Source: an uncultured Candidatus Saccharibacteria bacterium (GTDB lineage Bacteria > Patescibacteriota > Minisyncoccia > Phycocordibacterales > PCTT01). Taken from it: a stretch of DNA of 64,000 bases. Location: NCBI GenBank assembly GCA_964566505.1, contig CAZMIM010000001.1:132581-196580 (forward strand). The letters are read 5' to 3'. The notes beneath the pieces were generated by a model that saw nothing but the letters and a program-made list of their open reading frames with translations, was not told the origin of the DNA and ran no database searches. Shown here piece by piece: positions 15,396 through 35,960 of this stretch (positions are counted from its first letter, which is position 1; each line of letters opens with the position of its first letter). A program made the position numbers and the translations under genes.

Positions 15396-15618
15396 GGAAG
15401 CATTCCATGATCTCCTGAGCCTTCTGATAGCGTGTTTTGGCTTGTACGTGGTTGTGTACGCGATGGGTATGGCTAAAACTCATCCCGTCGTAGCAGCTGG
15501 ACGACTTGTCGGATCATCCTTGAGGTTCGTTCTACGCTGTGTCGGCGGAGCCATGATTGGCCTCGGAGCAGGACTATTCTTTTCCTCCCGTTCTCCGAAA
15601 AGACGGCTGAAGGAATGA
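15394..15618 (+). CDS. Small two-TM membrane protein (74 aa)
   Basis: Hydrophobic segments LLSLLIACFGLYVVVYAMG and GGAMIGLGAGLFF. Its stop overlaps the coupling-protein start. Confidence 0.35.
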   Translation: MEAFHDLLSLLIACFGLYVVVYAMGMAKTHPVVAAGRLVGSSLRFVLRCVGGAMIGLGAGLFFSSRSPKRRLKE

Positions 15619-17612
15619 GTAATTCATCGTCCGTTATCCTGCTAGTTCTCCTGATCTGGATAGTGCTTCACACAGTGCTGTTCAAATTGAAGCTGGTCGA
15701 ACGGCATCCAGCCCGATTGATCGGTTTCCGTGTAGGCCGTGTGTTGCGCTTTCTGGTGTTGGCTCCTTTCGGCGGTGTTCGAATCCTGTGGCGACTGATA
15801 TCACAGAATTCAGTTCAAGCCGACTCTTCATATGGTTTCATGCCACGGTGGAGTCGGTTTTTCTTTATCAGGAAATGGTTTCGCCGCCGAGGAATTGTAG
15901 TAGACTCCTCCCTACGACGCCTGTCGGAGTCTGTGAGTCAGCGACATGTTCTTGTCTGCGCTCCGAGCGGAGCCGGGAAGTCAACCCGGGTCATTATTCA
16001 GCAATGTCTCGCAGTCGAGCGCGCTGACCATACGCTCATTCTTACGGATCCGTCAGGAGAAATCTGGAGGGCGACAAGCGGATATCTCTACTCAAAAGGA
16101 ATGCAGATCAGGGCGCTGAACCTAAGCGATCCCAGCCTCTCAATATTGTACAACCCTCTGGCTCGTTGCGAGACCAAGAACGACGCACTCCAACTCGCAC
16201 GGATCCTTATAGACTCAGCCTATCCCTCTCAGAAAGGTGACATTTTTTGGACGGAGGCTGCAGTTGGATTCTTAGGCTGCATTCTGACAATGTTGAGGAA
16301 CGGACCTGCTGAGTATCGAAATCTCGCAAACGCGTATCGCCTGATTCTCAAAGCCGGATCCGACATAAGGGCACTCGACGATCCCATGTCCAAGTATGCA
16401 GACGAAGACACTTTTGCTTCCTATGCATCGACCGTCGCTTCACCGGAGAAGGTCTTTCTGAGCATTGTGGCAACCGCACGTGTCGCCCTGCAGCCACTTT
16501 CGAACCCTATCCTTTCAAGATTGACCTCAGATGATTCACTTGACATCGCTTGTCTAAGGGAGTCACCCTCCTGCCTCTATGTGATCATCGAGGAGACCGA
16601 ACTCAAGTACTACTCCTTCCTCCTCAATTGCCTCTACACCCAGCTGTTCACAGCCTTCTCCAAATCACAGGACGATCAGCTTCCTGCCTACGTACTGCTT
16701 GATGAGTTCGCACATACTCGAATCCCAAACTTCCCATTGATGGCCACAACACTCCGAAAACGAGGCGTAAGCTTGCTGATGGCAATACAGTCGACAGGAC
16801 AGCTTGATGCGGCATACACGCCAACAGGAGCGCGCATCATCCGAGAGGGAGGCTCAAACACTCAAATATTTTTCCCCGGCTTGCCGCATTCAACTTGTGT
16901 CGAGATATCTCACATGCTTGGTCGAAACCGGCGTGACTCGGGAATCGGCAAAGTATCCGCTTCAGCTGGACCTCTCATGGCTCCAGAAGAAATTCGAACG
17001 CTTCCTGAAGATCGAGCGCTATTGGTGAGCACGAATAGGCAACCGGTTTTACTTCGAACAAAGCCCTACTTCCGCAACCGCCGATTGAAAAAGAGAGCAG
17101 AGCTTCCACCCGTCGATTCCTTCCCGGAAACCGTCCTGACCGGGCAAACCGCTCCTGAGATCCAATACATGCCTTTGCCATCTCCTCAACGTCAGACAGA
17201 TGGGCGCAGTACAGCCAACCCCGGAAGCTCACTTGCCGACCACAGCGGCACAGAGAAACCGGCAGATCCTGTTCCCACGATGGATCAACTGTCTGAATCG
17301 GTTGTGAAGCAGGTAGCTCAACGGGTATGTGAGCTCACAGGACCTGCCCTGAAGCAATCCATCCTACTCAATCAAATTGGATCCGATGCTGTCGTACCTA
17401 TGACAGATCTGATGGAAGCCCTGGGTATTTCGAGAGACGTAGCCGACCGGCTGCGAAACGAAGGCAAACTCCGTCCGGTCGTAACGAAGAATGCCAGGAA
17501 CAGCCGTCTCTACGTGTCGATCGGTCACGCCAGAAATCTGTGCCGGCAACTCAAAGAGGCTCCGATTCCATCGAAGCGAAGAAGTATGAGTCGCACTAAA
17601 CCTAAAAAATAG
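15615..17612 (+). CDS. Type IV coupling protein (VirD4/TraG/TraD-like conjugative ATPase)
   Basis: 665 aa. N-terminal TM helices, Walker A VLVCAPSGAGKSTRV, Walker B-like YVLLDEFAH. Followed directly by MobC-like and relaxase genes. Confidence 0.7.
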   Translation: MSNSSSVILLVLLIWIVLHTVLFKLKLVERHPARLIGFRVGRVLRFLVLAPFGGVRILWRLISQNSVQADSSYGFMPRWSRFFFIRKWFRRRGIVVDSSLRRLSESVSQRHVLVCAPSGAGKSTRVIIQQCLAVERADHTLILTDPSGEIWRATSGYLYSKGMQIRALNLSDPSLSILYNPLARCETKNDALQLARILIDSAYPSQKGDIFWTEAAVGFLGCILTMLRNGPAEYRNLANAYRLILKAGSDIRALDDPMSKYADEDTFASYASTVASPEKVFLSIVATARVALQPLSNPILSRLTSDDSLDIACLRESPSCLYVIIEETELKYYSFLLNCLYTQLFTAFSKSQDDQLPAYVLLDEFAHTRIPNFPLMATTLRKRGVSLLMAIQSTGQLDAAYTPTGARIIREGGSNTQIFFPGLPHSTCVEISHMLGRNRRDSGIGKVSASAGPLMAPEEIRTLPEDRALLVSTNRQPVLLRTKPYFRNRRLKKRAELPPVDSFPETVLTGQTAPEIQYMPLPSPQRQTDGRSTANPGSSLADHSGTEKPADPVPTMDQLSESVVKQVAQRVCELTGPALKQSILLNQIGSDAVVPMTDLMEALGISRDVADRLRNEGKLRPVVTKNARNSRLYVSIGHARNLCRQLKEAPIPSKRRSMSRTKPKK

Positions 17613-17717
17613 GGCAACTCAGCAAGTACGCGCTACTTCCGGAGTCATTTTGAGAACTGACCCTGCGGTAGCGCCTGGCCTTGGCCAGCTTGCTCAGGAA
17701 ACCTGAGAGCGAAGTCG

Positions 17718-18101
17718 ATGAGCTCGACACTGAAAGACAGAAAACGAAAATATCTTCAGGAGCTTCGTCGCACCTATACCAGAGTGGATTTGATGATTCC
17801 GCCCGAGGAGGCAATCGTGATTCAGTCGGCTGCCCGGAAGCACGGAATCAAAGTTGGAAAGCTTCTTCGTGTGGCAACGCTCGCGTACCTGAATCAAGAA
17901 TTTGTGGTACCGGATCCGGAGGTCGTTCGTGCCTTAGAGCTACAGATCCGAAGAATTGGAACCAACATCAATCAAATTGCTCGTGCTGCGAATCGGAGCC
18001 GCTCGGTTTCAACTCAGAATATCGAAGATGCGTTTCACCTTCTAGCCGAACTGGAGGACGTCATTGATCAAGCATTTAGGCACCCGGATCAAAATCGATG
18101 A
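17718..18101 (+). CDS. mobC: MobC-family mobilization (relaxosome accessory) protein
   Basis: 127 aa. RRTYTRVDLMIPPEEAIVIQSAARKHGIKVGKLLRVATLAYL matches the MobC pattern (RRT..v.vRls.eE...lk..A...g.svs..lR). Confidence 0.55.
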   Translation: MSSTLKDRKRKYLQELRRTYTRVDLMIPPEEAIVIQSAARKHGIKVGKLLRVATLAYLNQEFVVPDPEVVRALELQIRRIGTNINQIARAANRSRSVSTQNIEDAFHLLAELEDVIDQAFRHPDQNR

Positions 18102-18676
18102 TCATCAAGTCGCTTCGTTGGAAATCTGCCGGATTCAACCGCTTAGTTGACTACGTAGCCAAACATGCCGAAAACAAACAAGCGTTCCGTGTATTTCACA
18201 ACATGCTGCCTCACAGCGATTTATGTCGAGTTTCTGACGAACTGCGAACGAACGACGAGTACAGAAATGTGAGGCGGACTCCAACCGTGCTCTATCACGA
18301 AATCCTAGCGTTCCATCATCTCGACGGTGACGACCTCACTTCGCAAGCGCTTCAGGACCTAACAGAGCAGTACCTCCGAATTCGAGCGCCAAATGGCCTC
18401 GGATTCGCAATGCCACATTTTGATTGTGACCATGCACATGTGCACATTGCCTTGTCTGGAGTGGAATTCAGATCAGAGAAGAGCTTGCGAATGGACAATC
18501 GGAGATTCAAAGCCGTTCGAGAACAGATCGAGATGTACCAAATGGATAACTATCCCGAACTAACACATTCTCTCGTTTATGTTGGGAAGGATCGCATACG
18601 CGTCCAAACAAGGCTCAAAGAACTTGAGTCCATTCGATTAATTCGCGCCTTTGAACCAGGACTCGAGAAGAAGTAG
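18098..18676 (+). CDS. Relaxase/mobilization nuclease domain protein (MobA/VirD2-like, short)
   Basis: 192 aa. Starts MIIKSLRWKSAGFNRLVDYVAK..., His-triad motif HFDCDHAHVHIAL (HxDxxHxHxH). Overlaps the mobC stop. Confidence 0.55.
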   Translation: MIIKSLRWKSAGFNRLVDYVAKHAENKQAFRVFHNMLPHSDLCRVSDELRTNDEYRNVRRTPTVLYHEILAFHHLDGDDLTSQALQDLTEQYLRIRAPNGLGFAMPHFDCDHAHVHIALSGVEFRSEKSLRMDNRRFKAVREQIEMYQMDNYPELTHSLVYVGKDRIRVQTRLKELESIRLIRAFEPGLEKK

Positions 18677-18766
18677 TTCCGTTTCTAGAGAGCCGTTACT
18701 TTCAGTTCGGAATACGATACGAATTTGAAAACGGCGCCCAGTGATTAGTCACTGGACGCCTGGGGT

Positions 18767-19252
18767 TTACACGAATCCTCTTTCCGCCAGACTCACATAG
18801 TCATCGTCTCCGAGTATCAAGTGGTCGCGGACAGGTATCGCCAATAGCTTTCCGGCTTTGACGAGCTGCTTCGTGATGTGTATGTCTTCACGGCTTGGCT
18901 CGGGGTTTCCTGACGGATGGTTGTGAGCCGCAATCAGACATGAGGCATTCGCCAGGATTGCTGCTTTGAATACCGCCCTTGGCTCAACAACGCTTTGACT
19001 CAAACCTCCAACCGATACTGAGCACATGCCCGTCAACGTCATCGCTGTGTCCAAGAAGCAGATGATGAACTCTTCACGGTCGTGCAGAATGAAATAGGCT
19101 TTTAGAAGCTTTGCCAGTTTCCCCGGCGTGTTGATCTTTTCCCGCTTGGCGAACGAAAGGGTTCGCTCCCGAATCAAGCGAGATGAATAGATAGGAATGA
19201 TAAGTCCAGGCTTCTCACTCTCAACCTCTTCGTCTAGGGGTTCTTTGTCCAT
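18767..19252 (-). CDS. radC: RadC-like JAB/MPN domain protein
   Basis: HNHPSGNPEPSREDIHITKQL JAB motif. Track ORF runs to 19441, but the likely start is MDKEPLDEEV at 19252; the upstream extension overlaps the neighbouring ATPase 3' end. Confidence 0.6.
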   Translation of the reverse strand: MDKEPLDEEVESEKPGLIIPIYSSRLIRERTLSFAKREKINTPGKLAKLLKAYFILHDREEFIICFLDTAMTLTGMCSVSVGGLSQSVVEPRAVFKAAILANASCLIAAHNHPSGNPEPSREDIHITKQLVKAGKLLAIPVRDHLILGDDDYVSLAERGFV

Positions 19253-19373
19253 CGTATTGACCTCCTGATATGAAATGATCTGTGGGCTAGAGGCACATCG
19301 TGTGGTGCACATCCTCGTCCATCGTATCGGGAAGTCGATGTGGCAAGTAGACGGTTTTTCGGGGTGAACCTGT

Positions 19374-20570
19374 CTACTTGTCAAAGGGGTATCGTCTGGG
19401 GTCAAGTGTATCGGCACTGAATGGCTTGGACACAGCACCATCGATCATCATTCTGAGGTAGATCGAGTGGTTCGGCAGATTTTCGAAGTCTTCGAACGAG
19501 AACTTGGGATAGAACTCCTTCGCCATGATTCTGGAATCAGTCGAACCCAACCTAAATGAGATTATGGTGCCCACGTTTCCAAGAATGGCTTCTCTCATTT
19601 CTCGGTCTCCTTGCCCTGTGTATTGCTGGCAAATCGCCAAACATACCTTGTATTTACGAGCCTCAGAGAACATCTGGTAGAAAACAGGGGATGAGTAAGC
19701 ATGGACCTCATCTAAATAGGCCGAAAAGTCTCTTCGTCGTTCCTCAGGAGTGTCTGCTCGCGCTAGTGTTGCAGTCTCCAAAGATGCCATCAGCAAGCCT
19801 CCGATTAGGTAGGCAGTATCTTCTCCGACTTTTCCTTTCGCCAGGTTGACCAACAGTATTTTTTCACTGTCGATGATGTCTCGAAGGTCGACGCTTTCCC
19901 CTTTGCCCGTCAGGAGGTCAAATGAAACGGGATTGGCAAGAAATGCCCCTGTTCTGTTCAGAATTGGTGCAATGGTTTCGGCTCTGTATCGAAGAGGAAT
20001 TTTCTCATATTCAAGTCGCCAGAATCTTCGCACTTCCTCATGTTTGATGTATGGAATGACCCCGTTACGAAACGATTTGTCCTGAAGCATCCGCGGAATG
20101 TCTCGGAGCGTGGCATTAGGCAAGTACAGCAATGAAATCAGAGTCATCCTTAATTTGTGTTCCATCGCCGGTCCCCACCAGGAGCTCCATAGTTTCTTGA
20201 ATGTGTTTAGGAGGCTTGAGGCAACAAGAACCCTCTTGTCTTCGGGGACATCTCTCAGTGGATTGAATGAAAGCAGCATGGATGCATGCGGCAGATTGAG
20301 ATCCACGAGCCGATGCTGATCTGCAGGTCCAATACGACGCTTCACATTTTCGTAAAGGTCGCCGTGGGGATCAACGAGCATAAATCCGCGCCCACGCCGG
20401 ATGTCTTCCGCTGCGAATATCTCTAGCAGACTGGATTTCCCGGTTCCTGTTTTTCCGAGAATGTAGATGTGTGACCGCCTATCGATACCATTTCGGATGC
20501 CAAACACCGTTTGGCGGCCTCGGTGATTGGTCCGGGCGAAATATGCAATTTGATCCTCGTCATTTCGCAT
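19374..20570 (-). CDS. P-loop NTPase of conjugative/mobile-element type (TraD/TrwB-like or HerA/DUF87-like)
   Basis: 398 aa. Walker A ILGKTGTGKSSLL, Walker B-like SAYLDEVHAY. No TM helices. Confidence 0.5.
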   Translation of the reverse strand: MRNDEDQIAYFARTNHRGRQTVFGIRNGIDRRSHIYILGKTGTGKSSLLEIFAAEDIRRGRGFMLVDPHGDLYENVKRRIGPADQHRLVDLNLPHASMLLSFNPLRDVPEDKRVLVASSLLNTFKKLWSSWWGPAMEHKLRMTLISLLYLPNATLRDIPRMLQDKSFRNGVIPYIKHEEVRRFWRLEYEKIPLRYRAETIAPILNRTGAFLANPVSFDLLTGKGESVDLRDIIDSEKILLVNLAKGKVGEDTAYLIGGLLMASLETATLARADTPEERRRDFSAYLDEVHAYSSPVFYQMFSEARKYKVCLAICQQYTGQGDREMREAILGNVGTIISFRLGSTDSRIMAKEFYPKFSFEDFENLPNHSIYLRMMIDGAVSKPFSADTLDPRRYPFDK

Positions 20571-20911
20571 TCTCTCATTGTTTCATCAGGGTCTACCTAG
20601 TGAAGGCGGTGGGTTAGGTGGTTGCCGATCTTCATCCACTACCGGAGCACATTGGAGGTAGTGACGCCACTATTGACGAACATATTTTAGCCACACACCC
20701 CCACTTTCGTCCTCGTTCCCGAATTGTCAAATCAACATGTATTTAGCCTATTCAAAGGCGCAGACCCAATGCAATTAGTCTACATGGGGTAATTCGTTCG
20801 ATGACAAATAGTTGGACAGTTGACTAAAGCAGACGTTTTGCATGAACGCATGGATTTGTTTGCTAGAATCACCCTCGGCCCAAAGAGCAAATCACTCGTA
20901 TTGGGCAGGTC

Positions 20912-20939
20912 AGTGGTTCGAGTCCGCTCATTGGCTCCA
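20912..20939 (+). other. tRNA 3' fragment (T-arm plus acceptor 3' strand plus CCA) with no foldable 5' part; probable att-site remnant
   Basis: agtgg-ttcgagt-ccgct T-arm, cattggc-t-cca. Upstream sequence does not give an anticodon or D arm or a complementary acceptor strand. Confidence 0.4.
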
Positions 20940-20945
20940 TTAAAA

Positions 20946-20978
20946 AAGCCCTTTCTGATGTCAGAAAGGGCTTTTTTG
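20946..20978 (+). terminator. Rho-independent terminator
   Basis: aagccctttctga-tg-tcagaaagggctttttt. Confidence 0.6.
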
Positions 20979-21032
20979 AATTATTGCCTTTGCTGAGGCA
21001 AAGGATGGTGCAAGATAGGTGCACGAAAAACA

Positions 21033-21428
21033 CTATCCCTGCTGCACTTTCTCTTGGGCAAACAAGAACTTGACCATCACATTTGTAAGTTGCCACAAAG
21101 GCCCAAACGAGGAGCCGATAAATATTCTCCAGGCCCATTCGTCGACATCAAGTTCGTAAAGGTTGAAAGCGTCCACGACGAACAGCGTTGCCACTAACCC
21201 AAGCCAGACGCTAATCCAAATAAGTGACATCCAGAGAAAGCAGCCTCGAAATGAGTGTCTCTGGTTACCATCTCGAATCTTTTGCCTACCCAATTCGTCA
21301 CCAAATCGCCGTGTTCTTGCCTCGACATCTTTCCTGTCCTCGTCGGACAAGTGGCTGAGAACCGACAATTCATCGATTGACCCAGAACTGATGAGGTCAT
21401 ATTTGGTGTCTTGCTCAGCCTTTGCCAC
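21033..21428 (-). CDS. Small membrane protein; candidate toxin partner of the upstream Panacea-domain protein
   Basis: 131 aa. Charged N-terminus, two C-terminal TM helices (CFLWMSLIWISVWLGLVATLFVV). Overlaps the upstream gene by 14 nt. Confidence 0.4.
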   Translation of the reverse strand: MAKAEQDTKYDLISSGSIDELSVLSHLSDEDRKDVEARTRRFGDELGRQKIRDGNQRHSFRGCFLWMSLIWISVWLGLVATLFVVDAFNLYELDVDEWAWRIFIGSSFGPLWQLTNVMVKFLFAQEKVQQG

Positions 21429-21921
21429 CGCCTTCGCCCCCTTGTCTTTCTTTCAGGAGCTTCTCGTAGTGCTCCTTAATAAGATCATCGCCAATAGGCT
21501 CGCCGGATGGGGGATTTCCTTCAAACATCACCTTAAAGACTTCATACCAAGGCGTCCCAGGCATATGGGTGATGTCGGAGAGTGTGAATGCGTCCATCTT
21601 CTTGTACGCATTCCATACGGACTTGACGAAAGATCTCGTCGAAGTGTCATCAAGCGGGATCTCATCGTCTCCGATAGGTGCAGTTACAGCGCCTCTTCCG
21701 TATCGCTTGGTGCTTTTGTAGAGGTCACTGAAGACTGGTCCATAAGGCCAAGCCTCCGGAGCCCTGTCGACCAGTCGTCGTCCTCTTAATCCAAGGCTCC
21801 AACCATGGGCCACATAAACGAGCTTGATCAGCTTCATGGGCGACAAAGATTGACCTTCTTCGCTTGCCAGCTTGAGAAACTCGTTTGCTATACTTGCAAC
21901 AGAATAGGGGCGATCCATCAC
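21415..21921 (-). CDS. Panacea-domain (SocA/GepA/DUF4065-like) protein, putative antitoxin
   Basis: 168 aa. MKLIKLVYVAHGWSLGL...EAWPYGPVFSDLY matches the DUF4065 signature (KL.KLlY...G...W..GPV...Y). Confidence 0.55.
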   Translation of the reverse strand: MMDRPYSVASIANEFLKLASEEGQSLSPMKLIKLVYVAHGWSLGLRGRRLVDRAPEAWPYGPVFSDLYKSTKRYGRGAVTAPIGDDEIPLDDTSTRSFVKSVWNAYKKMDAFTLSDITHMPGTPWYEVFKVMFEGNPPSGEPIGDDLIKEHYEKLLKERQGGEGGGKG

Positions 21922-22009
21922 GGTAGTGGCTCAATGGATTTTGTTGTACGACAATTGGCCTCGGATGTTTTACTTTCCACGTAACCACTAAACCTCATTC
22001 AGAGTTCAA

Positions 22010-22603
22010 ATGGCACTATTGGATGCACATATCCGAGAAGCGATCATGTTAAACTTGCTGAGCGATGAGGATGGGAATTCCGATGTCGTAGTTGAGGAAT
22101 TGGCAGTTTGCAATGGTAGAGCTCGTGTAGATCTTAGCTTGATAAATGGGGCTCTGCACGGATTCGAAATCAAGAGCGAGGCAGACTCTCTCAAGCGCCT
22201 GAAAACTCAGAGTGTCCATTACTCAGCTGTCTTGGACTATGTGAGTTTGGTTGCGGCTCCAAAGCACATCGAAAGCGCGGCAGAGATAGTTCCAGATTGG
22301 TGGGGGATTATAGAGGTTGAGGATGCAAGCTCTGGGGTACAATTCAGAGTAGTTCGAGACGGTGAAATTAATCCAGATCCGCACCTTCCAAGCATAGTTC
22401 AATTGCTGTGGCGATCCGAGATGGAAGAAGTGATTTCCAACTACTTCCCAGAATTGAAGGTTACGAGATGGAATAAGCGAGAGATATCGGAATACCTGGG
22501 ACAAAATCTTTCCCGCCAGATACTTTCTTCGGAGGTGAGGAGATTGATCAAATCGAGAGAAGACTGGAGACTTGATCAACCACTTTCCGGATATGGTGAT
22601 TAG
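22010..22603 (+). CDS. PD-(D/E)xK-like protein resembling the sce7726 family
   Basis: 197 aa. EELAVCNGRARVDLSLINGALHGFEIKSEADSLKRL has an E...D...E-x-K arrangement. Convergent with and overlapping the next gene. Confidence 0.45.
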   Translation: MALLDAHIREAIMLNLLSDEDGNSDVVVEELAVCNGRARVDLSLINGALHGFEIKSEADSLKRLKTQSVHYSAVLDYVSLVAAPKHIESAAEIVPDWWGIIEVEDASSGVQFRVVRDGEINPDPHLPSIVQLLWRSEMEEVISNYFPELKVTRWNKREISEYLGQNLSRQILSSEVRRLIKSREDWRLDQPLSGYGD

Positions 22604-23633
22604 TGCCAATTTCAATCCATGATGTAGCATTCCCGGTGCCAGAATATTCTTCAGCGATATCCTTGATACGCTTGTCGCCCCACGAATAGTCCTCTCCTTC
22701 GTAGTAACCTGAATTAATGATCTCGGATGCGATGTCAATGTATTGCTTGTAGCCTCTCGGCGAGTGCTTGAACGGCTTGCCTCGGTGAATGGCCCAAGTC
22801 TCATTCAATGTATATTTCACCTTCGGTCCCATAACGTTGACCATTGCAGGGAAATTCAAGTCGCGTAAATCTGGTGGGTCAATACCATAATCAGAAAAAG
22901 TGGGTGTCTTTGTCCCAGGCGTTAGTTGAGCCAATAGATCTCGATAGAGGGTCCATCCAGTTCTTGCGATTTCTCCTTCACTCTCGGTTGGTATTCCACT
23001 GCTGGTCAAGTTGAGTGGCATGCCAGTTCCAGAAACCGAGGTACTTCTCCAGTCGCTCGTAGTTGGCAATGATTCGAGAAATGTCTTCGCCCATTTGATA
23101 TAGGTGGCTACCTGGGAGCTTGACACGGACTCAAAGTCGAGTAGTAGGTCTACCTCGGATGCCGAAACATCAAAATTGGTCAGTGTCTGAGCCAAGGTCG
23201 AGACGGTAACAGCTGGATCGTCATCCATCTCGTCAGTCAAGATTCTGATGCAAAGTCCATTGGCACCGGTAGCGAGGCATTCCTTGACTGCACCTTCGTA
23301 CTGACTTGATCGACTGAGCGAAGTTGCAGGTGTGAGAGTTGGGTTGAGAGGGCGAATGTGGTTGTGAAAAGCGAAAAGACAATGTGAATCATCATCACAA
23401 AGTTCGTCCACCATTCTCATGTCGACAATTAGTCGTCTGTCAGTATTTAAGAACCTCTTTATATATCCTGCTTTACTCTCAATAAATGAGTCTACGGAGT
23501 CCTTGTTGCGCTCGTGCGGCTGAATATGTGGTACATCTAATAGTGGCACGATGAGAGAACTCGTAATCGAGTCGAGTTCTCGAATTGCTCGGCATTCTCC
23601 TGTTTTGCCTTTGATAATTGGGAAGTAAATCAC
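22548..23633 (-). CDS. Protein resembling the sce7725 / Beta-protein (PF14350-like) family
   Basis: 361 aa. N-terminus MIYFPIIKGKTGECRAIRELD resembles the Beta-protein family start (YVPILKxKxGEfxAL). This assignment is from memory. Confidence 0.4.
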   Translation of the reverse strand: MIYFPIIKGKTGECRAIRELDSITSSLIVPLLDVPHIQPHERNKDSVDSFIESKAGYIKRFLNTDRRLIVDMRMVDELCDDDSHCLFAFHNHIRPLNPTLTPATSLSRSSQYEGAVKECLATGANGLCIRILTDEMDDDPAVTVSTLAQTLTNFDVSASEVDLLLDFESVSSSQVATYIKWAKTFLESLPTTSDWRSTSVSGTGMPLNLTSSGIPTESEGEIARTGWTLYRDLLAQLTPGTKTPTFSDYGIDPPDLRDLNFPAMVNVMGPKVKYTLNETWAIHRGKPFKHSPRGYKQYIDIASEIINSGYYEGEDYSWGDKRIKDIAEEYSGTGNATSWIEIGTNHHIRKVVDQVSSLLSI

Positions 23634-24019
23634 TCTCTTGTGCCGCTCATTAGTAGTTGTGTCGCAAGGGCCAAGGTCCTTAAGAAATCAGGCGAACCAC
23701 TAAGCCTATTACTTGCTGAGACCAATTGCAAGGATAATACTACCCATTTTCAGAACATGTGGGGTGCCTATGGTGCTGCGGCAACTATCAGGAATAGGGA
23801 TCACGGAATAGTTACCAATCAAGCGCTTTTGAGCCTTACTGAAGAACCACTGAGAGCCGCTGAGACACTAGTATATTTGTACCATTCTTTGACTCAACGT
23901 TGACAGCGGGAACACAGAAGGCATACTGAAAGATGTAACAGTAAACCTAACAAACCCCCTAGCATCATGACACGTATCAAAGGAAACAATGACGGCCCCA
24001 ACGGCCGAAATGAATCATC

Positions 24020-24586
24020 TCAAATTGGAAGTAGAAAGAATGTGTCGAGGACACAGACTGTACGAGAGGTAAAAGCAGGAAAACACCCTGGAGCGCACGT
24101 AGTGAAGATCAATAAGCGCGAGTATGTCAGAGACAACCCCGACAGATCAAAGAAAGACAACGTAAACAGAAATCGGTAATTGATATGTCTGTATTTATTG
24201 TCACATGGGATCTGAATAAAGAAGGATTGAACGGCTCCGTGTAGTACTGAGCGCGCACGACGAACCGATACCCGGTACTCGTCGATTAGGTGCTGAGCCA
24301 ATACTCTGCGACGTGCTGGCCCTATAGTTTTTTTGATAACGTCCTGCAGCATCTGCTTATCCAGGGACAAGTCAGCCACCAGCTTCTTCAATTGGTTGTT
24401 CTCGGCTTCAAGCTGGCGTAGACGGCGAAGCTCAGAGGTCCCAAGACCTCCGTACTTCTTCTTCCAATTGTAAAAGGTAGCCTCGCTGATGCCCATCTTG
24501 CGGCAAACCTCGGCTACCTTGGTCCCGCTCTCTGCTTGGCGCAGGGCGAAGATGATCTGGCTCTCGGTAAACTTCGACTTCTTCAT
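24020..24586 (-). mobile_element. IS3-family transposase OrfA remnant (HTH plus leucine zipper; OrfB truncated after its first residues)
   Basis: MKKSKFTESQIIFALRQAESGTKVAEVCRKMGISEATFYNWKKKYGG...LEAENNQLKKLVADLSLDKQMLQDV, then LIDEYRVSVRRARSVL (OrfB start), then unrelated sequence. No DDE domain follows. Confidence 0.6.
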
Positions 24587-25058
24587 GGCAATCACGTTTT
24601 TGTCTGATTGTACGTAATCGCCCGGAAACTCTACTATTGAATGGACCAGTTTATGGGAAGAGGTCATATGGTACGACGTCCACGGGAGCCCGGTAACCGT
24701 GCGCCATACGGGGCCGATGGTGGTTGCAATCTCGTTGCCATTCGACGGCTTTGTCGAGTGGCGCTGATAGACTATTTCATAATTGCGCAGGACAGATAGT
24801 GCTGAACCATAACCTATAGAAGTACGAGATTCGCCTGACCGAGCACCTGTGGTGGGACACCTGTACTCTTAGATAGTAAAGCCACTTACTGGACCTAAAC
24901 AACAAAGCTTTTAGACCATTTCGCCCAATACACTTAAGATGCCTTACGCCATGACTCCCTTGAAGGCCTCTGCCTGCCCTCTTTTCACTATAGTCTAGAA
25001 ATGCATGTCTAGAAAAAACCTATCGGGTTTCACTCCCGATAGGTTTTAACACCTTGCC

Positions 25059-25352
25059 TCAACCTGCGTGAGACAAGACATCGATTACTTGATAGTAGGC
25101 CCCTTCTTTCTTGAGCAGCCCATATATCTCTAATTCTCTAAGAAGGTCACGCAGAGACAATGTTCTGTCAACTTCATGAAAACCATTGGGAAGTCTCCTC
25201 AGAAATACCTCCTCAAGCTCAGATGCCGTAAACGGTGTATCTAGTGAGTAAATGGTGTCAAACAGAATCTGACGATTCTGCTCATACTTGTCTATAGCGG
25301 TCATGTGATTACCTCCACAGGTGCAGTCATTTGATTTAGGAATTCGTCCCAA
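25059..25352 (-). CDS. Small hypothetical protein, 3' partner of the HD-domain gene
   Basis: 97 aa. Start overlaps the HD gene stop by about 50 nt. No recognisable motif. Confidence 0.3.
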   Translation of the reverse strand: MGRIPKSNDCTCGGNHMTAIDKYEQNRQILFDTIYSLDTPFTASELEEVFLRRLPNGFHEVDRTLSLRDLLRELEIYGLLKKEGAYYQVIDVLSHAG

Positions 25353-27295
25353 AGCAATTCGCCCAAACGCCTTCGCATTTCTGGCAATGCCTTATCCATA
25401 TCAATGCCGAAAACAAAAACATAAAATGGTGGAATAAAAAGGGATCTTTCTTTTAATCTCTTCGCCACATCCGACACATCTGAGATTGGCACAGTCGATG
25501 CCGAATCACCACCTTCTTCTTTCTCCCCATCGCTCTGATTAATTGCGAGAGGATCTGAAGGACTCACTCCAGGTTTTACCTTTATGGGAGCATAGAAAGC
25601 GTCCTCGATTTTATACTCAGCCACGAGACGTTTAATGGCCTTGTCCAGTGAAGTGTACAGCCACGACTCTTTTCTCTTACCCAAATAGAAGAACGTCTGC
25701 TCAAGATGTGACAGCAACAATCCTCCTCCATTGTAACCTTCTTCCCGAGATTTAATCAACTTCACAATCTCCAATAGATGTGGTTGAACTCTGGCTTTAA
25801 GATCCTCCATTCCTGAAGAAATGATGTCACCGAGCGATGCCCAATTAGTACCGCTAGATGCCTCCTGAAACGCTTTATCCACCTCCCAAAAATCGTCTAA
25901 CCTCTTGTAAAGGGTTACGTATCCTTTTCGCCCCGAAAGCAACTCATCAAGCATCTTTTTGACAGCTTGAGACGTTTGGGGGGAATGATTATAGTGACGC
26001 AAAACAGTAATCAACCACGAATCATCCCACTGAGACACTCTAGTTGCAAAGTCGGCGGGCGTATCTGCCATTCCGCCCTCAAAGGCTATCCACAGGCCCG
26101 AAATATCAATAGGTAGTTGGGTGCCCCTAAATGCCTTTCTCTTTTGCTGACCGGCTTCAGATCTATTTTCGAGTTGGTCCTGGGCCAAATGTCTAATCGC
26201 ACGCCTCATGAGGCCGTCAGTCTTTTTAACCCTATGATGAGATACAGCATACCTATAAAACTCAAAACGCCGCTCCAACACCTCCTCCACTGTACTAATA
26301 GACCTTGCAGATGGGAGAAACAAGAATGGTGAAACGCCTTTATTATCGTCATCAAAGCTAGGGTTCTTAACTAGCTGAAATGAGCTTAACAACCTCTCTA
26401 TTCCTACGGGCTGCCTCCCCAAGGCCGTCATGACTCTATCCCTAGACACAAAGTCCAGCCTATCGACGTCAATTACGCCGTCTATCATTGACTTCAGACT
26501 GCTTTCTCTACCGATCCCATTCTTTCTCAATGCCCTCAACGCCAACTGGCCAACTATAAATTCGTTATATCTTGACTGCCTCGATGTCAGTCTTTTGGTT
26601 GCTTGAGTAATTATCTCTCGCGATAAACGCTCACTAACTCCTTCATGAAAAGACGGAGGGTTAAACGGAGATAGCAGGTCAACAAAATTTTTCTTCGCTG
26701 ATTCGTCTTCTAGGTCCTCTTTGATGTACTCGTTGTAAATGTCAGTAAGTGCAAATTCCGCGACATGAGAGAAAGGTGGATGACCAACATCATGAAGCAA
26801 TGCCGCTATTCTGGCAGCTTGATAGCTGGCCAATAACAGATTGGCCCGTTCGCCATGTCGGGTGTTCTCTAGGTTTGTTAGAACTCCCTGATAGAATGGG
26901 TGATCAAAAATAAGATCACCGTTATCCTTAAAATCTACTTGCTGTCCCCCTCTGCCATCTAAATCACTAAAAGTATGCGCGTAGTGCGAACCAAAAGTTT
27001 GCTCGTCTTGCTCTATTTCCGATATTTCCTCACCAATTGAATCTAGAAATTCAGAAACCGTCTTCTGAGAGGCATTTTTAATCCCCGAAAGAAACACTTT
27101 TCCGGCGATGTGCATGCATCCGATTGAATGGCTAAATCTTGAGTGCCGAGCTGACGGGAATGTTAAGTAGAGAGTAGAGGTTTGCAGCACATTGTGAAGC
27201 CGATTGAAAATTGTGGTCGACAATACTGCTTTTTCAAAAGGACTTACAGGAATAGACTCATGTATGCTATCCGCTATATTCGTAATCTTGAGCAT
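25301..27295 (-). CDS. HD-domain phosphohydrolase, dGTPase (Dgt/SAMHD1-like dNTP triphosphohydrolase) family
   Basis: 664 aa. FSHSIGCMHIAGKV (first His) and LLHDVGHPPFSH (HD...H) match the dNTPase HD signature. Confidence 0.6.
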   Translation of the reverse strand: MLKITNIADSIHESIPVSPFEKAVLSTTIFNRLHNVLQTSTLYLTFPSARHSRFSHSIGCMHIAGKVFLSGIKNASQKTVSEFLDSIGEEISEIEQDEQTFGSHYAHTFSDLDGRGGQQVDFKDNGDLIFDHPFYQGVLTNLENTRHGERANLLLASYQAARIAALLHDVGHPPFSHVAEFALTDIYNEYIKEDLEDESAKKNFVDLLSPFNPPSFHEGVSERLSREIITQATKRLTSRQSRYNEFIVGQLALRALRKNGIGRESSLKSMIDGVIDVDRLDFVSRDRVMTALGRQPVGIERLLSSFQLVKNPSFDDDNKGVSPFLFLPSARSISTVEEVLERRFEFYRYAVSHHRVKKTDGLMRRAIRHLAQDQLENRSEAGQQKRKAFRGTQLPIDISGLWIAFEGGMADTPADFATRVSQWDDSWLITVLRHYNHSPQTSQAVKKMLDELLSGRKGYVTLYKRLDDFWEVDKAFQEASSGTNWASLGDIISSGMEDLKARVQPHLLEIVKLIKSREEGYNGGGLLLSHLEQTFFYLGKRKESWLYTSLDKAIKRLVAEYKIEDAFYAPIKVKPGVSPSDPLAINQSDGEKEEGGDSASTVPISDVSDVAKRLKERSLFIPPFYVFVFGIDMDKALPEMRRRLGELLWDEFLNQMTAPVEVIT

Positions 27296-28078: not shown

Positions 28079-28474
28079 GTGGACCCTAACCTATTTGTTG
28101 CGGACTGGGAGAAGATCTTCGAGGCATTGATGTTCATCATCGTGTCTTCTTTCATTGTCGAACGATTTCTGGCATTGTTGTTCGAAAGCCGATTTTGGAT
28201 TGAAAAGGTTGAATCCAAAGGATCCAGCCTCAAAGAAGTCTTGGCACTGATTGTTAGCGTAACCATCTGTGTTTACTGGAGCTTCGATGCAGTTAGCATG
28301 ATAATCCCATCTCAACCTACGACTACCCTTCTTGGAGAAATAGTCACCGGAGGTGTGATCGCAGGAGGTAGCAAAGCATCCGTGAAGCTCTTCCATGATC
28401 TTCTGAAGATTCAAAGCTCCGCTAGGGCTGCAAAGAAGAAGGGCGACCAACCAACCAACGAAAGTCAGTCATGA
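28079..28474 (+). CDS. Hypothetical membrane protein
   Basis: 131 aa, about three hydrophobic segments. Stop overlaps the nuclease gene start. Confidence 0.35.
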   Translation: MDPNLFVADWEKIFEALMFIIVSSFIVERFLALLFESRFWIEKVESKGSSLKEVLALIVSVTICVYWSFDAVSMIIPSQPTTTLLGEIVTGGVIAGGSKASVKLFHDLLKIQSSARAAKKKGDQPTNESQS

Positions 28475-29547
28475 TTGGATCAAATCCTTTCTCGAATTGC
28501 AGGTTTTGGCTTCTCTTGTTCGTTCTCTTTGGCTCTGCGAGTACCACAGTGAGCTCGGAAATCACCCTGGACTATCTGGAAGTGAGAAGAACCACTTCGA
28601 TTCGTGGAGAACCTGTCGCAGGAGGAATAGAAATTGCCCAGGTGGAGAAAGGGGAATTCTTGATTCTGCTAGACAATGGAGACCAGATGGGTGGTTTCTA
28701 CCACGTTAGAACACGTTCAAACGCTGATGGGTGGATTTACCGGTCTATGGTCAGACGGTACAGAGGCGAAATGCCTTCTCCCAATATCACCGGTGACGAC
28801 GCATTTGACGACCCAACGTATGCACTCCCACAAACCCTCCAGGAGGCAGCAGCCGCCCATTTGAGACACGGCAAACCACAGGGAACTTACGAGCGAGTTA
28901 GAGCGGGATACGCCTATGCTGTTGATCCTCGTCTAAGAATCCCGATTTGGGTGCAGTATGAACTCAAAGCATCAGACCTTGGCCGAGAAACGCAGCGATC
29001 AAATGACTTCAGGCAAGACACCTCTCTTCCAGATATCGCTCGAGCCGCGCTAGAGGATTATGCCGGAAGCGGGTTCGATCGGGGGCACATGGCACCTGCT
29101 GGAGACATGGTCAGAGACAATAATGTCATGTCGGAGAGTTTCTACTTGTCAAACATGGCACCGCAAGTTGGAATAGGTTTCAACAGGCACATATGGCGAG
29201 ACTTTGAATCAAGCGTACGCTCATGGACAGAATTGATCGGAACAGTCACCATCATCACCGGCCCGGTATTTATGGCGTCGAATGGAATGGTTGAGTACGA
29301 AGTCATAGGTGATCGAAATGTCGCAGTGCCAACGCACTTCTTTAAAATTGTCGTCGACTTTAGCGACCCCACCCAACCACAGTCAGTCGCGATTCTGATG
29401 CCCAACGAATCCCTTACTGGTCACACTTACCTGGAATTTGTGACCACAATCGATGTTATCGAAGATCTCACGGGACTTGATTTTTTTAACCGGATTCCGC
29501 TGCCTGTTCAAGAGCAATTTGAAAGCATAGCCAATCCAAGTTTGTAG
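28471..29547 (+). CDS. Secreted DNA/RNA non-specific endonuclease (NucA/EndoG family) with N-terminal SH3-like domain
   Basis: 358 aa. Signal peptide FWLLLFVLFGSAST. Catalytic DRGHMAPAGD and SNMAPQ (metal-binding Asn) as in Serratia nuclease. Confidence 0.65.
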   Translation: MIGSNPFSNCRFWLLLFVLFGSASTTVSSEITLDYLEVRRTTSIRGEPVAGGIEIAQVEKGEFLILLDNGDQMGGFYHVRTRSNADGWIYRSMVRRYRGEMPSPNITGDDAFDDPTYALPQTLQEAAAAHLRHGKPQGTYERVRAGYAYAVDPRLRIPIWVQYELKASDLGRETQRSNDFRQDTSLPDIARAALEDYAGSGFDRGHMAPAGDMVRDNNVMSESFYLSNMAPQVGIGFNRHIWRDFESSVRSWTELIGTVTIITGPVFMASNGMVEYEVIGDRNVAVPTHFFKIVVDFSDPTQPQSVAILMPNESLTGHTYLEFVTTIDVIEDLTGLDFFNRIPLPVQEQFESIANPSL

Positions 29548-31455: not shown

Positions 31456-32859
31456 CTACCACTTGTTGCGAATGTAGCGCATCAAATTGAAGAGGTGAGT
31501 ATAATTTTGCTCGCCTGGCTTGTGCTTCAGAGAAGCCCCAGAGTTGTGAGAGGCCTCCTCATTTACAATCTGAGCGATGATTCTACTCGATTCATGGTCG
31601 GGTAGCATCTGATAAACAGACGGAATGAGGAAATCATGCCGAAAGGGCTGAATACGCTTGTTCTTTGGCTTGCTCTTCAGAACTTTCGCTCCATGGATAT
31701 ATCTGCTTCTTAGCTCCTTTGGCCAAAAATCAGGATCCTCATCATCGTAGTCATCGTCTAGGATCGCTTTCTGGGAATAAATATTCCGCGCCGTTTTGAG
31801 GTTGTTTCCAATCTTGTGTCCAAAAAGCTTGCCAGCCTTTACGCGAGAGTAGGCGATCTTCTTGATGGGAGATCCTATGAGTGATCCAAGAATCTCGTCG
31901 ACACTGTCATTGGCTGAAATGATGTTTGCCAGCCAAACACCCTGTGAGGACAAACTGTACTCAGGGGAATTGATCAAGGACAATACAGAGAAACGATTGT
32001 CTGGTAAGTAGTTGGTTGTGCTTAGGTCTTTAAATGCACTCTTGGGGTCACCGTACAATCCGCTAAACCACTTTATGGCAGTGCCCAAGAATTCTGCCCA
32101 CTCCGTGTTGCCGGTGCTTCTCGCGTCTTCATATCCCGCCGTAACGAGCTTATACAATTGCTCAAAATTTATGGCATCGGGCAATGCTGCAGCTAGAGAG
32201 GGAAACACATTTGTGTTGACGGACAAGAGAGAAACGACGAACTCGAGAAGCGTACCGGTTACGTGCTCCTGATTCATGGGATTGGCAAACGGAGCTCCTT
32301 GGTTTGGGCTGTTGATAGTAATGACTGCCGACACCTTGTTTTCCTTGAACACATACCTATCCAGGAATGCCAAGTATCTCGCAACGGTACCTCCTTGAGA
32401 GTAGCCAACGAGGATATTGAAATCGGCCTCCTCGATTAGATCATAGTACCCGACTCCACGTGGGGTAGCCATGTAGCGGCCGTTCTCGATGTCAAAAATA
32501 TCGTAGTTGTTTGCCTTGTCCCACCACGAATAAAATAGCTCGTCACTTTCGTACAGGTCGTGATAATGAGCTAGAATGCCGTTCAGTATCTCTTTCCCTG
32601 ATTCGTCCAAGCCAGCCGTGTCTTGATATCGGTCCCCAATGCACTTGATCGGAAATGGCACGAAGTACTCAACCTTCGGCATGAGCTGATACTTGCTTTC
32701 TCCATCGGGATTACTCCGCGTACAGAAAGTCGGCCGGAATCGTTTTCTCACCTCTCCATCGCTAAGATGAGTAAACATATTTCTCAGTTCGCCCAGCTTC
32801 CCTGATACGAGATCAACCGAGCGGTTGATGAACCATATTTTGACAGTTTGACGGGCCAT
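31456..32859 (-). CDS. Alpha/beta-hydrolase fold protein (lipase/esterase-like)
   Basis: 467 aa. GxSxG nucleophile elbow GYSQGG. Start overlaps the stop of the upstream hydrolase gene. Confidence 0.5.
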   Translation of the reverse strand: MARQTVKIWFINRSVDLVSGKLGELRNMFTHLSDGEVRKRFRPTFCTRSNPDGESKYQLMPKVEYFVPFPIKCIGDRYQDTAGLDESGKEILNGILAHYHDLYESDELFYSWWDKANNYDIFDIENGRYMATPRGVGYYDLIEEADFNILVGYSQGGTVARYLAFLDRYVFKENKVSAVITINSPNQGAPFANPMNQEHVTGTLLEFVVSLLSVNTNVFPSLAAALPDAINFEQLYKLVTAGYEDARSTGNTEWAEFLGTAIKWFSGLYGDPKSAFKDLSTTNYLPDNRFSVLSLINSPEYSLSSQGVWLANIISANDSVDEILGSLIGSPIKKIAYSRVKAGKLFGHKIGNNLKTARNIYSQKAILDDDYDDEDPDFWPKELRSRYIHGAKVLKSKPKNKRIQPFRHDFLIPSVYQMLPDHESSRIIAQIVNEEASHNSGASLKHKPGEQNYTHLFNLMRYIRNKW

Positions 32860-34352
32860 CAGTAGTCCTTTCGATCTAGGTTCAATCGATCACGGAGAAT
32901 CTGCAAGTGATCTGCCTTCTCGCCTTCTGCAGTATTCACATCCCAGTATTTTGTGTGTTGGAATCCTTTCGGTTTGGCTCCAAGTGATACTTTGATATCA
33001 GCAACGCCTGGTCCGAATAGAGGGCCAACCGGCCCTCCAATTGGGTCCCCCTTATACAGATATCCCTCGGGAAAGTAGAGGTTGGTCCATCTCGTGGAGC
33101 CGAATACTGCAGCATGATGTGCTTTCCAAAAGCTGTCATCGTTGCCTTCGCTTCGCGATCTGTAGGAAAATCGTTCTCTCGAATCGAAGGTCTCCATCTG
33201 CGGCGGATCGGTCGGAAACCAACGCTGGTTAACTTTTTCACTGAAAGCTTCCTGGGACGCTACGACAAGCATATTTGCATGAGCCAGCGGCGAACCCAAG
33301 GTTATGAAGTCAGAAATTTTCCAAGGAGGATCCGACTTGGAAAGTTGCTCACGATACCGATGCTTAGCTGCCAAGTATGCGCTGGAAGCGGCTTGAAGCT
33401 CATCTTTCAGACCTTTCTGTTCAAAGTCGTCAGAGGAAAGCGTCTCCGTCGGTGCTGCCTGGTTTCTCTGCCTCTCCCGAATCCTCTCTAGCCCTTCCGC
33501 TGCTTTCTCTACTTCCCTCAGAACACTCAGCGCCTCTGAACCCTGATTGTCCCTACTCTCAAGATTGGGAAACCTATAATTCGCCCAGAGGGCGCTCAGA
33601 GCATCGTAGGCGACCAAACTACCTAAACTATGGCCCACCAATACCACTCGATCGTAATCACCACTATCATGAACTGACCTAAGCAGATCGATAGCTCGCT
33701 TCCTTATATGATTGCGAATAGAAACATTGCCTGCACTGTTGTGCAAATATCTTGCAGCATCTCCTATGTATTTTACAAAGGCACCCTTCCAGATGAATAG
33801 CATCGCTGCAATAAAGAGGAATATGTTGGGTAGATACTGGACGATAGAACTTCCAAACCCATTGTATCCCTCTAGCCAGTCGAAAAGGCCAAAATCAGGC
33901 AGAAACCAGCTAGCGAGTGAAAGTCCCAGGATGGGCAAAAGTGCGATCACTGCCCACCATATTTTTCGTACCGACCCCGTCAGAGTGGTTGGCGCCCTGC
34001 CAAGTAGTGGAAGCAGCCATCCAATGACATGAGTGAGCGTATTGCCACCCATCATATCTTGCCAGTAGACCTCGTAAAAATCAGTTCTCACAGTTCCACC
34101 TTCACCACCTTTAATCACGGCTGAGTTGGTAGTAATTCGTCTCATTTCGTGAGAGTCATACTTAGTATCTGGCATGATCCAGTACTTTGGCCGCGCCCCC
34201 TCTTGTGCAATTCGAATATTTCCGTTTGTGCTCCATACGGCTTCAACGAATCCCATGATTGACTCCATTGGCTTTTGGTCACCAATGCCATGGATCAATA
34301 CTACCGCTTGCTTTTTTTTCATCGGAACGCCTCCTATCGTTCTTCGAGCCAA
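32859..34352 (-). CDS. Alpha/beta-hydrolase fold protein (lipase-like) with internal TM segments
   Basis: 497 aa. VVLIHGIGDQ (HG oxyanion-hole motif) and VLVGHSLGSLVA (GHSLGS nucleophile elbow). Two hydrophobic helices between them. Confidence 0.5.
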   Translation of the reverse strand: MARRTIGGVPMKKKQAVVLIHGIGDQKPMESIMGFVEAVWSTNGNIRIAQEGARPKYWIMPDTKYDSHEMRRITTNSAVIKGGEGGTVRTDFYEVYWQDMMGGNTLTHVIGWLLPLLGRAPTTLTGSVRKIWWAVIALLPILGLSLASWFLPDFGLFDWLEGYNGFGSSIVQYLPNIFLFIAAMLFIWKGAFVKYIGDAARYLHNSAGNVSIRNHIRKRAIDLLRSVHDSGDYDRVVLVGHSLGSLVAYDALSALWANYRFPNLESRDNQGSEALSVLREVEKAAEGLERIRERQRNQAAPTETLSSDDFEQKGLKDELQAASSAYLAAKHRYREQLSKSDPPWKISDFITLGSPLAHANMLVVASQEAFSEKVNQRWFPTDPPQMETFDSRERFSYRSRSEGNDDSFWKAHHAAVFGSTRWTNLYFPEGYLYKGDPIGGPVGPLFGPGVADIKVSLGAKPKGFQHTKYWDVNTAEGEKADHLQILRDRLNLDRKDY

Positions 34353-34847: not shown

Positions 34848-35960
34848 ATGCGTGTGAGTGCTCGGCGCAGACCCACCCATCTTGAGGCAAGAGTATCGCT
34901 CAACCGCAACCATGAATCTTTTCATTCATACACCATGACCAAAGAAGACGGTATACTTCGTGACGCTTTTAGGATTATTGGTGATACTATAAACATCGCT
35001 GGTTCCGAAGGCGTACTGATTGATCGCGATACGCTAGCAAAATATCTGCTGGGCTCTGAACTTCGAGAGCGCATTCTGGCCAGATCGGAATATAACTTCC
35101 ATGGAAAAGACAGCCCATTCGAAACAGCTGCCAACTATGTGGACTGGTTCAGTTCGTATGTGACACAAAGATCCGAAATAACGAAGAGTTGGAATAGAAG
35201 TATCTACCGGGCACGTGTGATCACTCAATCAGAGGCTACTGGGAAGGAACGCGAAATTTGGGCGTACTCAGTACGTTCGCCGACCACAAGAGGGCGACTG
35301 ATCTTCAGAGTTGGTGAAGGAGGTATAATTCGAGTTGGCCTAATCGGCAAAGACGGTAGATGGACAAATAGTGATGGACTCGAACAACTGCCTTGCGGAC
35401 TTTATACGGTTAATTTTGGACGGTGGGCGGCCACTCTGAAAGAGTTGGAGGATAGGATCAACGACCCGAATTGCTCTGAAGACGATTTGCAATCCTTCTT
35501 TGAAGAGAATCGTGAATTGCTTCAGGATACGAGGTATAAATCCGTAATTCCCGAAGCGGTCATTCATAGAGAGAGCGGGGAGGTTACTGCACCTTGGGAA
35601 GCCGACTTCATCCTCTCTCCTGCTGATCAAGAGGCATTCTGTAAAATCATTGAGTTGAAGCGCCCGCAATTTGGCACCATAAAAAAAGAACGACGAGGCC
35701 ACGCTAAGTTTTATCGTGAATTGCATGAGGCAATTTCACAACTCAGAGACTACCACGAGGCTTTCGATTCGATCAGCACGCGCGAAAAGTTTCAAGATCG
35801 ATATGGTGTAGAGGTTTTTAAGCCAGACCTTCAACTTATTATTGGTCGCCGATGGACATCAAAGGAACACCAAGCCATGCTAGTACTGCAACGAAGGCAG
35901 CATGTTGAAATACGAAGTTGGGACGGAGAGCTGGATCGACTTCGGAGGCTTTTTACCTAG
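34848..35960 (+). CDS. sduA: Shedu-like (DUF4263 nuclease domain) defense protein
   Basis: 370 aa. C-terminal half ...FFEENRELL...EADFILSPADQEAFCKIIELKRPQ...ISQLRDYHEAF...PDLQLIIGR...VEIRSWDGELDRL parallels the DUF4263 core (D...E-x-K, LIIGR block). Confidence 0.5.
   Translation: MRVSARRRPTHLEARVSLNRNHESFHSYTMTKEDGILRDAFRIIGDTINIAGSEGVLIDRDTLAKYLLGSELRERILARSEYNFHGKDSPFETAANYVDWFSSYVTQRSEITKSWNRSIYRARVITQSEATGKEREIWAYSVRSPTTRGRLIFRVGEGGIIRVGLIGKDGRWTNSDGLEQLPCGLYTVNFGRWAATLKELEDRINDPNCSEDDLQSFFEENRELLQDTRYKSVIPEAVIHRESGEVTAPWEADFILSPADQEAFCKIIELKRPQFGTIKKERRGHAKFYRELHEAISQLRDYHEAFDSISTREKFQDRYGVEVFKPDLQLIIGRRWTSKEHQAMLVLQRRQHVEIRSWDGELDRLRRLFT

Follow-up and report, generated by a model that had tools for sequence, protein, structure and literature searches.

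The best-described relatives of the locus analyzed here are the PanAT toxin-antitoxin pairs, of which nine were validated by Kurata et al. in 2022, three of them with membrane-spanning toxins (PMC8832971). These membrane-spanning PanTs halt transcription, translation and replication together, and for PanT(Esc. col.) and PanT(Bar. api.) depolarization with uptake of SYTOX Green has been demonstrated (PMC8832971). Toxins of groups T3 and T12, the latter including the validated Bartonella apis PanT, are described as having a charged N-terminus followed by C-terminal transmembrane (TM) segments, and complex formation with the toxin is described for validated PanAs (PMC8832971). We compared these systems with a gene pair on the minus strand of a 64,000-nucleotide stretch of DNA (hereafter, the window) from contig CAZMIM010000001.1 of an uncultured Candidatus Saccharibacteria bacterium: a Panacea-domain gene, panA (21415..21921), and directly downstream a small open reading frame (ORF), candidate panT (21033..21428). 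The pair is of an already described kind, a Panacea antitoxin followed by a small membrane protein, but unusually divergent. We consider it likely that the two genes form a bicistronic PanA-PanT module of the PanAT(Esc. col.) type known from E. coli, and that this module was acquired horizontally.

The E. coli pair, listed in Table 1 of the Kurata study as PanA WP_000287252.1 and PanT WP_000019185.1, with a 22-nt gap in the dataset (PMC8832971), provides the most direct comparison. As in this T3 system, the window pair has a standalone Panacea gene first and a small toxin gene, or its candidate, directly downstream; as in E. coli PanT, the N-terminal region of the candidate product is charged and hydrophobic sequence follows towards the C-terminus, here one clear TM helix and one weakly hydrophobic helix; and both pairs lie on mobile DNA, in E. 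coli a prophage region. The PanT proxies from this system, WP_000019186.1 and WCJ00123.1, fall into one profile family with candidate panT. The pairs differ in that candidate panT is 131 aa long, compared with 182 aa for the E. coli partner, that the window genes share 14 nt where the E. coli genes stand 22 nt apart, and that the window host is a lineage of ∼40% GC, unlike E. coli. Of the two, it is the E. coli pair that was tested for membrane depolarization and SYTOX permeability.

The upstream gene, panA, encodes a standalone Panacea protein of 168 aa from a GTG start, or 167 aa from an ATG at 21918. The original prediction had read a DUF4065/Panacea signature in this ORF; its two motifs, KLIKLVYVAHGW and EAWPYGPVFSDLY, are present in the translation, and a search with PF13274 (SocA_Panacea) gives a match well above the Pfam gathering cut-off (55.4 vs 25.7 bits, E = 1.4e-14), covering residues 31-126 of the protein and positions 1-113 of the 113 in the model. 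The product also matches phrog_1281 of PHROGs at 131 bits, and no extra domain was found on it, whether an N-terminal helix-turn-helix, PAD1 or ZBD. E. coli PanA WP_000287252.1 aligns with it over its full length (37% identity over 163 residues, E = 1e-35). Homologues of the window PanA form 107 clusters, at most 50% identical, all of which carry PF13274, and 526 relatives occur in GTDB representative genomes. All of the alignment invariants (W57, G60-P61-V62, H118 and P123-W124) are kept in the window protein, and its AlphaFold2 (AF2) model is confident (predicted local distance difference test score, pLDDT, 92.9; predicted template modeling score, pTM, 0.89). With the window PanA as query, a sequence-profile search of the PDB returned no match, and a fold search of the PDB returned nothing significant, the best hit being a DarTG chain (7yk3_B, E = 0.16).

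Direct neutralization of a TM toxin by a standalone Panacea protein has been reported for PanT(D11):PanA of B. choladocola, from the NetFlax study of Ernits et al. in 2023 (PMC10440598). There, the predicted Panacea contact comprises the N-terminal region of the toxin and a short helix preceding its TM segment, the PanA substitutions Y56A and H120E abolish neutralization, and Panacea is hypothesized to act as a sensor (PMC10440598). Candidates for the corresponding Tyr and His are present in the window PanA, where Y59 adjoins the second strand and the invariant H118 ends helix 110-118 (AF2 model and homologue alignment); judged by their position in the model, these residues may be the equivalents of Y56 and H120.

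The window PanA also has its Panacea/DUF4065 domain in common with the type VI toxin-antitoxin system SocA-SocB of Caulobacter, in which SocB, a soluble DnaN-binding toxin, differs from candidate panT, a membrane protein. This relationship raises the question of whether the window PanA might be a proteolytic adaptor that hands its partner to ClpXP instead of sequestering it. The Pfam family PF13274 was founded on SocA, and the best NCBIfam match of the window PanA is indeed the SocA equivalog model NF047745 (87.5 bits, E = 8e-25); that score, however, is far under the equivalog cut-off of 190. The partner here is a membrane protein with no Pfam-A or NCBIfam match (no SocB model was checked separately), and validated PanAs complex with their toxins (PMC8832971). 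We therefore regard an adaptor of the SocA kind as very improbable.

The partners of the PanA relatives sort into at least five motif families, named a to e in this analysis. Members score at least 113 bits on the hidden Markov model (HMM) of their own family, with cross-family medians of ∼0-8 bits and a maximum of 20.9 bits. An HMM of family b built without candidate panT scores candidate panT at 18.8-22.2 bits, compared with 7.9 bits on the family-a HMM and values below 0 on those of families c, d and e. When the window was scanned with the family-b HMM, candidate panT was the sole match among the 324 stop-to-stop segments that reach 60 aa (18.7 bits; next 4.3). The best of 2000 shuffles of candidate panT reached only 6.9 bits and the reversed sequence -2.1. 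A point against the assignment is that scores of 17-21 bits also arise between different two-TM partner families; with cross-family maxima in that range the HMM score alone is borderline, and we therefore ran hhalign. Compared with family b without its own sequence, candidate panT aligned with a probability of 92.9% (E = 3.7e-7) over 76 columns (51-126), a region covering the juxtamembrane arginines, the first TM helix (TM1), the loop, helix 2 and the C-terminal K-x-L-F; the control comparison with family a gave 17.5%. Candidate panT keeps the family-b residues R57, R61, W75, L76, K120, L122 and F123. A family-b profile search collected 64 clusters, called 'hypothetical' wherever they are named and without a Pfam domain in any. 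To judge from these profile comparisons, candidate panT has its place in an unannotated family of PanA partners.

What ties this family to a described toxin is the E. coli partner. PanA WP_000287252.1 is encoded in five E. coli chromosomes (loci L180-L184), each time with a 182-aa partner 22 nt downstream (WP_000019186.1, WP_000019187.1, WP_000089360.1, WP_032209643.1 and WP_059274466.1). One identical PanA thus has at least five partner alleles, indicating variation in the toxin next to a constant antitoxin. On the family-b HMM, the E. coli partner reaches 52.9 bits (E = 1.7e-18), against no more than 2.6 bits on the HMMs of the other families, which identifies family b, a part of cluster T3, as the family of E. 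coli-type membrane PanTs. Phage phiSTEC1575-Stx2k (L177) carries a closely similar variant of the E. coli pair, and the E. coli pair adjoins a PrtN-family gene. A tblastn search of cultured phages with a family-b member gave no match, even though the HMM assigns the partner in the Stx2k phage to this family.

The closest relatives of the window PanA are paired with members of either family a or family b. Family a holds the partners from Rugamonas rubra ATCC 43154 and Pseudomonas gingeri, which Kurata et al. assigned to T12 and T3, respectively. It has the same architecture as family b and the same place after closely related PanAs, with a different loop motif (W-H..P..W-W-L). Homology between the two families, considered as a possible link, was unsupported (hhalign 7.7%, profile vs profile).

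Some further E. coli loci were set aside as comparators: L088, L090 and L091, where the partner is soluble and of another kind, and L089, which has no adjacent partner. In the first three, all in P22-like prophage regions, a different E. coli Panacea gene (WP_000954425.1) stands 4 nt ahead of a gene for a soluble, non-membrane protein of 139 aa. The WP_000954425.1 locus illustrates how partners can be switched within a single species.

The pairing itself is conserved. In 70 of the 80 best genome loci of PanA relatives, an ORF on the same strand starts no more than 60 nt before or after the stop codon of PanA. A strongly hydrophobic segment is present in 66 of these 70 partners, and two such segments in 35; the partners have a median length of 131.5 aa, with an N-terminal region of median length 68.5 aa that is 32% charged. 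An overlap is the most frequent arrangement, the commonest gap being -4 (17 loci), with -14 in 5 loci. Conversely, when three family-b members found by profile were looked up, a PF13274 gene stood immediately upstream of each, the neighborhoods being otherwise unrelated. In IMG/VR, 61 of 70 partners are likewise hydrophobic, and 33 of the 70 belong to family b, which in the viral contigs examined accompanied this PanA clade more often than any other partner family.

In the window, the extents 21033..21428 and 21415..21921 agree with the 14-nt overlap that had been claimed for the two ORFs: the panA stop overlaps the panT start within 21415..21428 on the minus strand (GTGGCAAAGGCTGA), and a purine-rich stretch, AAGGGGGCGAAGGCG, lies just upstream of the candidate panT start. 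Together, these sequence features suggest translational coupling.

This conservation bears on a more trivial explanation, that the small ORF is a chance frame beside an orphan Panacea gene. Many spurious ORFs of 40-200 aa occur nearby, as does a 208-aa antisense ORF (21163..21789), and candidate panT begins with GTG and has no database homologue by single-sequence search. A chance frame would nevertheless have to account for a profile similarity that is specific to this ORF, for its agreement in position, strand, overlap, length and architecture with the conserved partner of 66 of 70 related loci, and for a terminator that stands after the small ORF and not after panA. We find this explanation scarcely credible. 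The antisense ORFs 21163..21789 (+) and 22223..22804 (-) gave no family match and were treated as shadow ORFs.

The product of candidate panT, 131 aa from the GTG at 21428 (a start codon that is uncertain, with in-frame TTG codons further in), is laid out as residues 1-61 of charged N-terminal region (41% D/E/K/R), a clear TM helix at ∼62-88 (Kyte-Doolittle 19-residue maximum 2.26), an acidic loop at ∼88-97 and a weakly hydrophobic helix at ∼98-123. AF2, run with 44 family sequences, models it as a helical hairpin, with helix 29-87, loop 88-96 and helix 97-123 (helix pLDDT 80-88). By hydropathy and AF2 this architecture is broadly compatible with the published description of T3 and T12 toxins, with a second helix that is weak at 0.84. 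Positive charges precede TM1 (R57, H58 and R61) and recur at the C-terminus (K120 and K127), and the loop is acidic (DAFNLYELDVDE); by the positive-inside rule, this distribution fits an N-in/C-in hairpin. The charged 61-residue N-terminus fits a region available to a cytosolic antitoxin. Candidate panT has no match in Pfam, NCBIfam, PADLOC or PHROGs, and a viral fold search with its model gave none.

Several observations weigh against assigning the small protein to the E. coli type of toxin. Single-sequence searches of 5.8 billion proteins and of 1.84 billion representative proteins found only candidate panT itself, and a BLASTP comparison with the E. coli partner was not significant (E = 0.31). 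The PanT of the published pair, WP_000019185.1, was not among the six alleles inspected, so that WP_000019186.1, WP_000019187.1 and others served as its proxy. No sigma-70-like site was found by a consensus scanner in 20600-22300. The most serious difficulty is the second hydrophobic segment (∼98-123), whose hydropathy peak of 0.84 lies below the usual threshold of 1.6. In the 56 related PanA partners that have such a segment, its peak has a median of 1.92 and a lowest value of 0.87, so none of the related partners compared has a helix 2 less hydrophobic than that of candidate panT. It is also far more polar than that of the E. coli protein and does not contain the residues of the G-T/S-T-T...G-L motif: the near-invariant family-b positions V99, L100, T106, T108, N110, V111 and G113 are replaced by A, W, S, F, P, L and Q, respectively. 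The original prediction of two C-terminal TM helices is accordingly borne out only in part; one clear TM helix and the modeled hairpin support it, while the second helix, at 0.84, falls short.

The weak hydrophobicity of helix 2, together with the seven substitutions, means that candidate panT could be attenuated, inactive or work differently. It is thus conceivable that the module has decayed, with PanA intact and the small protein an attenuated or inactive remnant of family b, as might also be suggested by changes as marked as N110P and G113Q in the second TM segment and by the status of candidate panT as a singleton cluster. Set against decay are a frame that is intact over 131 codons, with a typical overlap with panA, the family residues that are kept on either side of the substituted positions (from R57 to F123, as given above), a reasonably confident AF2 hairpin, and a PanA without any sign of decay. 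We judge decay improbable, while recognizing that the polar helix 2 and its bearing on toxin activity are the main uncertainty.

Thus the reading of the pair as a PanA/PanT-type module, which had been put forward from the sequence alone, is supported by PanA homology, by the hhalign match to a partner family and by conservation of the pair. From homology and gene order, we infer that the small protein is toxic and that PanA neutralizes it. In such a module, the cytosolic standalone Panacea protein would be made first, with translation of the toxin probably coupled to it via the 14-nt overlap. The small protein would insert in the inner membrane as an N-in/C-in helical hairpin, and the antitoxin would bind it directly, as in type II systems, most likely at the charged N-terminal region and the juxtamembrane helix before TM1. 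Free toxin would be expected to depolarize or permeabilize the membrane, probably after oligomerizing. Release of the toxin would follow loss or inactivation of PanA, either through loss of the element or, if Panacea is a sensor, through a phage-derived cue. Membrane depolarization, direct binding and the trigger are likewise inferred.

The limits of the transcription unit agree with a two-gene module. An intrinsic terminator hairpin (20942..20977, minus strand), whose 16-bp stem stands between an A-run and a T-run, lies 55 nt past the panT stop, and the flanking runs make it usable both ways. Its predicted fold has an energy of -29.3 kcal/mol (z = -6.7), and none of 200 shuffles was as stable; a consensus scanner did not call a terminator at 20942-20977. 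Sub-threshold Rfam matches to Thr_leader and PyrR in this region are explained by the hairpin. The terminator closes the two-gene operon. On the other side, 88 nt of divergent intergenic sequence (21922..22009), the presumed promoter region, separate panA from a divergent sce7726-family gene, so that the unit consists of two genes; this interval contains only one weak inverted repeat, with 15-nt arms that are 73% complementary.

The pair lies in foreign DNA, as indicated by a GC content of 46-54% over 8-36 kb of the window, in contrast to ∼40% in the core genome from 36 kb onward. The drop in GC near 36 kb marks the edge of ∼28 kb of foreign DNA. Eight core proteins that were tested were all singletons at 90% identity, indicating that no sequenced close relative of the host is present in the collection.

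Just past the terminator, a degenerate tRNA-Thr(CGU) gene (20862..20939, plus strand), noted for context only and recognized by a unique 25-nt T-arm/acceptor match, separates the pair from the remnant of a conjugative element on its left. The tRNA is intact from the anticodon loop to the CCA, with its 5' half unpaired, and ARAGORN calls it only at a relaxed 80% threshold, not by default. What is left of the tRNA probably marks a former attachment site of the conjugative element on that side; no second copy of the tRNA-Thr fragment that would delimit an island was found in the window. The remnant itself, of a conjugative or mobilizable element, occupies 15615-20570 and comprises a type IV secretion system coupling protein (15615-17612), a MobA/VirD2 relaxase fragment (18098-18676), RadC (18767-19441) and a HerA/TraD-like ATPase that also matches PADLOC mad8 (19374-20570).

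To the right of the pair, the claim of a defense-like neighborhood holds: genes for sce7726, Beta protein (PD-Lambda-2_C), HD, Endonuclease_NS and Shedu SduA_C proteins are all present. In 22010-23633, the sce7726-family gene (+) converges on the gene for the Beta protein (PF14350, -), their 3' ends overlapping by 56 nt. Both proteins match PHROGs of unknown function, and the Beta protein scores 198 bits on PADLOC PD-Lambda-2_C, with sce7725/7726 genes nearby. An IS3-family OrfA-like fragment (24020-24667, -) overlaps a small DUF3892 ORF (23967-24179, +). The HD-domain protein (25301-27295, -; 664 aa) has a weak similarity to anti-phage dGTPases over ∼50 residues around the HD motif. In 28079-29547 (+), a 131-aa ORF without a family match overlaps by 4 nt the start of a gene for a DNA/RNA non-specific endonuclease (Endonuclease_NS, PF01223, 173 bits), and these two could be a nuclease with its immunity or partner protein. 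Two adjacent PGAP1-like alpha/beta hydrolase genes (31456-34352, -) follow, and the Shedu SduA_C-domain gene is at 34848-35960 (+).

Such surroundings invite an extension of the PanA-PanT reading, in which the pair serves mainly phage defense or exclusion, by abortive infection or superinfection exclusion: Panacea would sense a phage cue and free the membrane effector, and the pair would be more than a simple addiction module. Consistent with this proposal, Shedu, sce7725/7726 (PD-Lambda-2_C-like), HD and nuclease genes are neighbors of the pair in the foreign DNA; its PanA clade is abundant in viral contigs, with at least 522 relatives of the window PanA in IMG/VR, and occurs in cultured temperate Pseudomonas phages and in Stx phages; and Ernits et al. 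in 2023 hypothesized a sensor role for Panacea (PMC10440598). Co-location with defense genes is, however, merely suggestive, no PADLOC model matches either the window PanA or the small protein, and the cited PanAT literature reports no phage-defense phenotype for a pair of PanA with a membrane PanT. A role in defense or exclusion is therefore a possibility that we take seriously while leaning against it.

A bolder conjecture combines this role with the peculiarity of the second helix: that its polar residues (R101, P110, Q113, N116 and K120) change the mode of action, and that the pair, situated where a defense island begins or ends, is a phage-triggered abortive-infection module with Panacea as its sensor. 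We hold this to be speculative and rather unlikely. If true, the change in helix 2 might amount to, for example, an amphipathic, interfacial or gated helix, and the pair would offer a tractable two-gene test case for the unexplained sensor role of Panacea.

For the PanA-PanT module that we favor, the pair is a very divergent relative of one tested in E. coli, and the result is accordingly a sound annotation, not a discovery. The main gain is that a 131-aa ORF unmatched by ordinary search can now be named as a probable PanT-type membrane toxin, and that the unannotated family b is tied, via the partner of WP_000287252.1, to a toxin tested in E. coli. Within this family, candidate panT lies at the extreme of sequence variation. 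Were it toxic, it would reveal the family positions that a toxin can do without; were it not, it would exemplify toxin decay beside an intact antitoxin.

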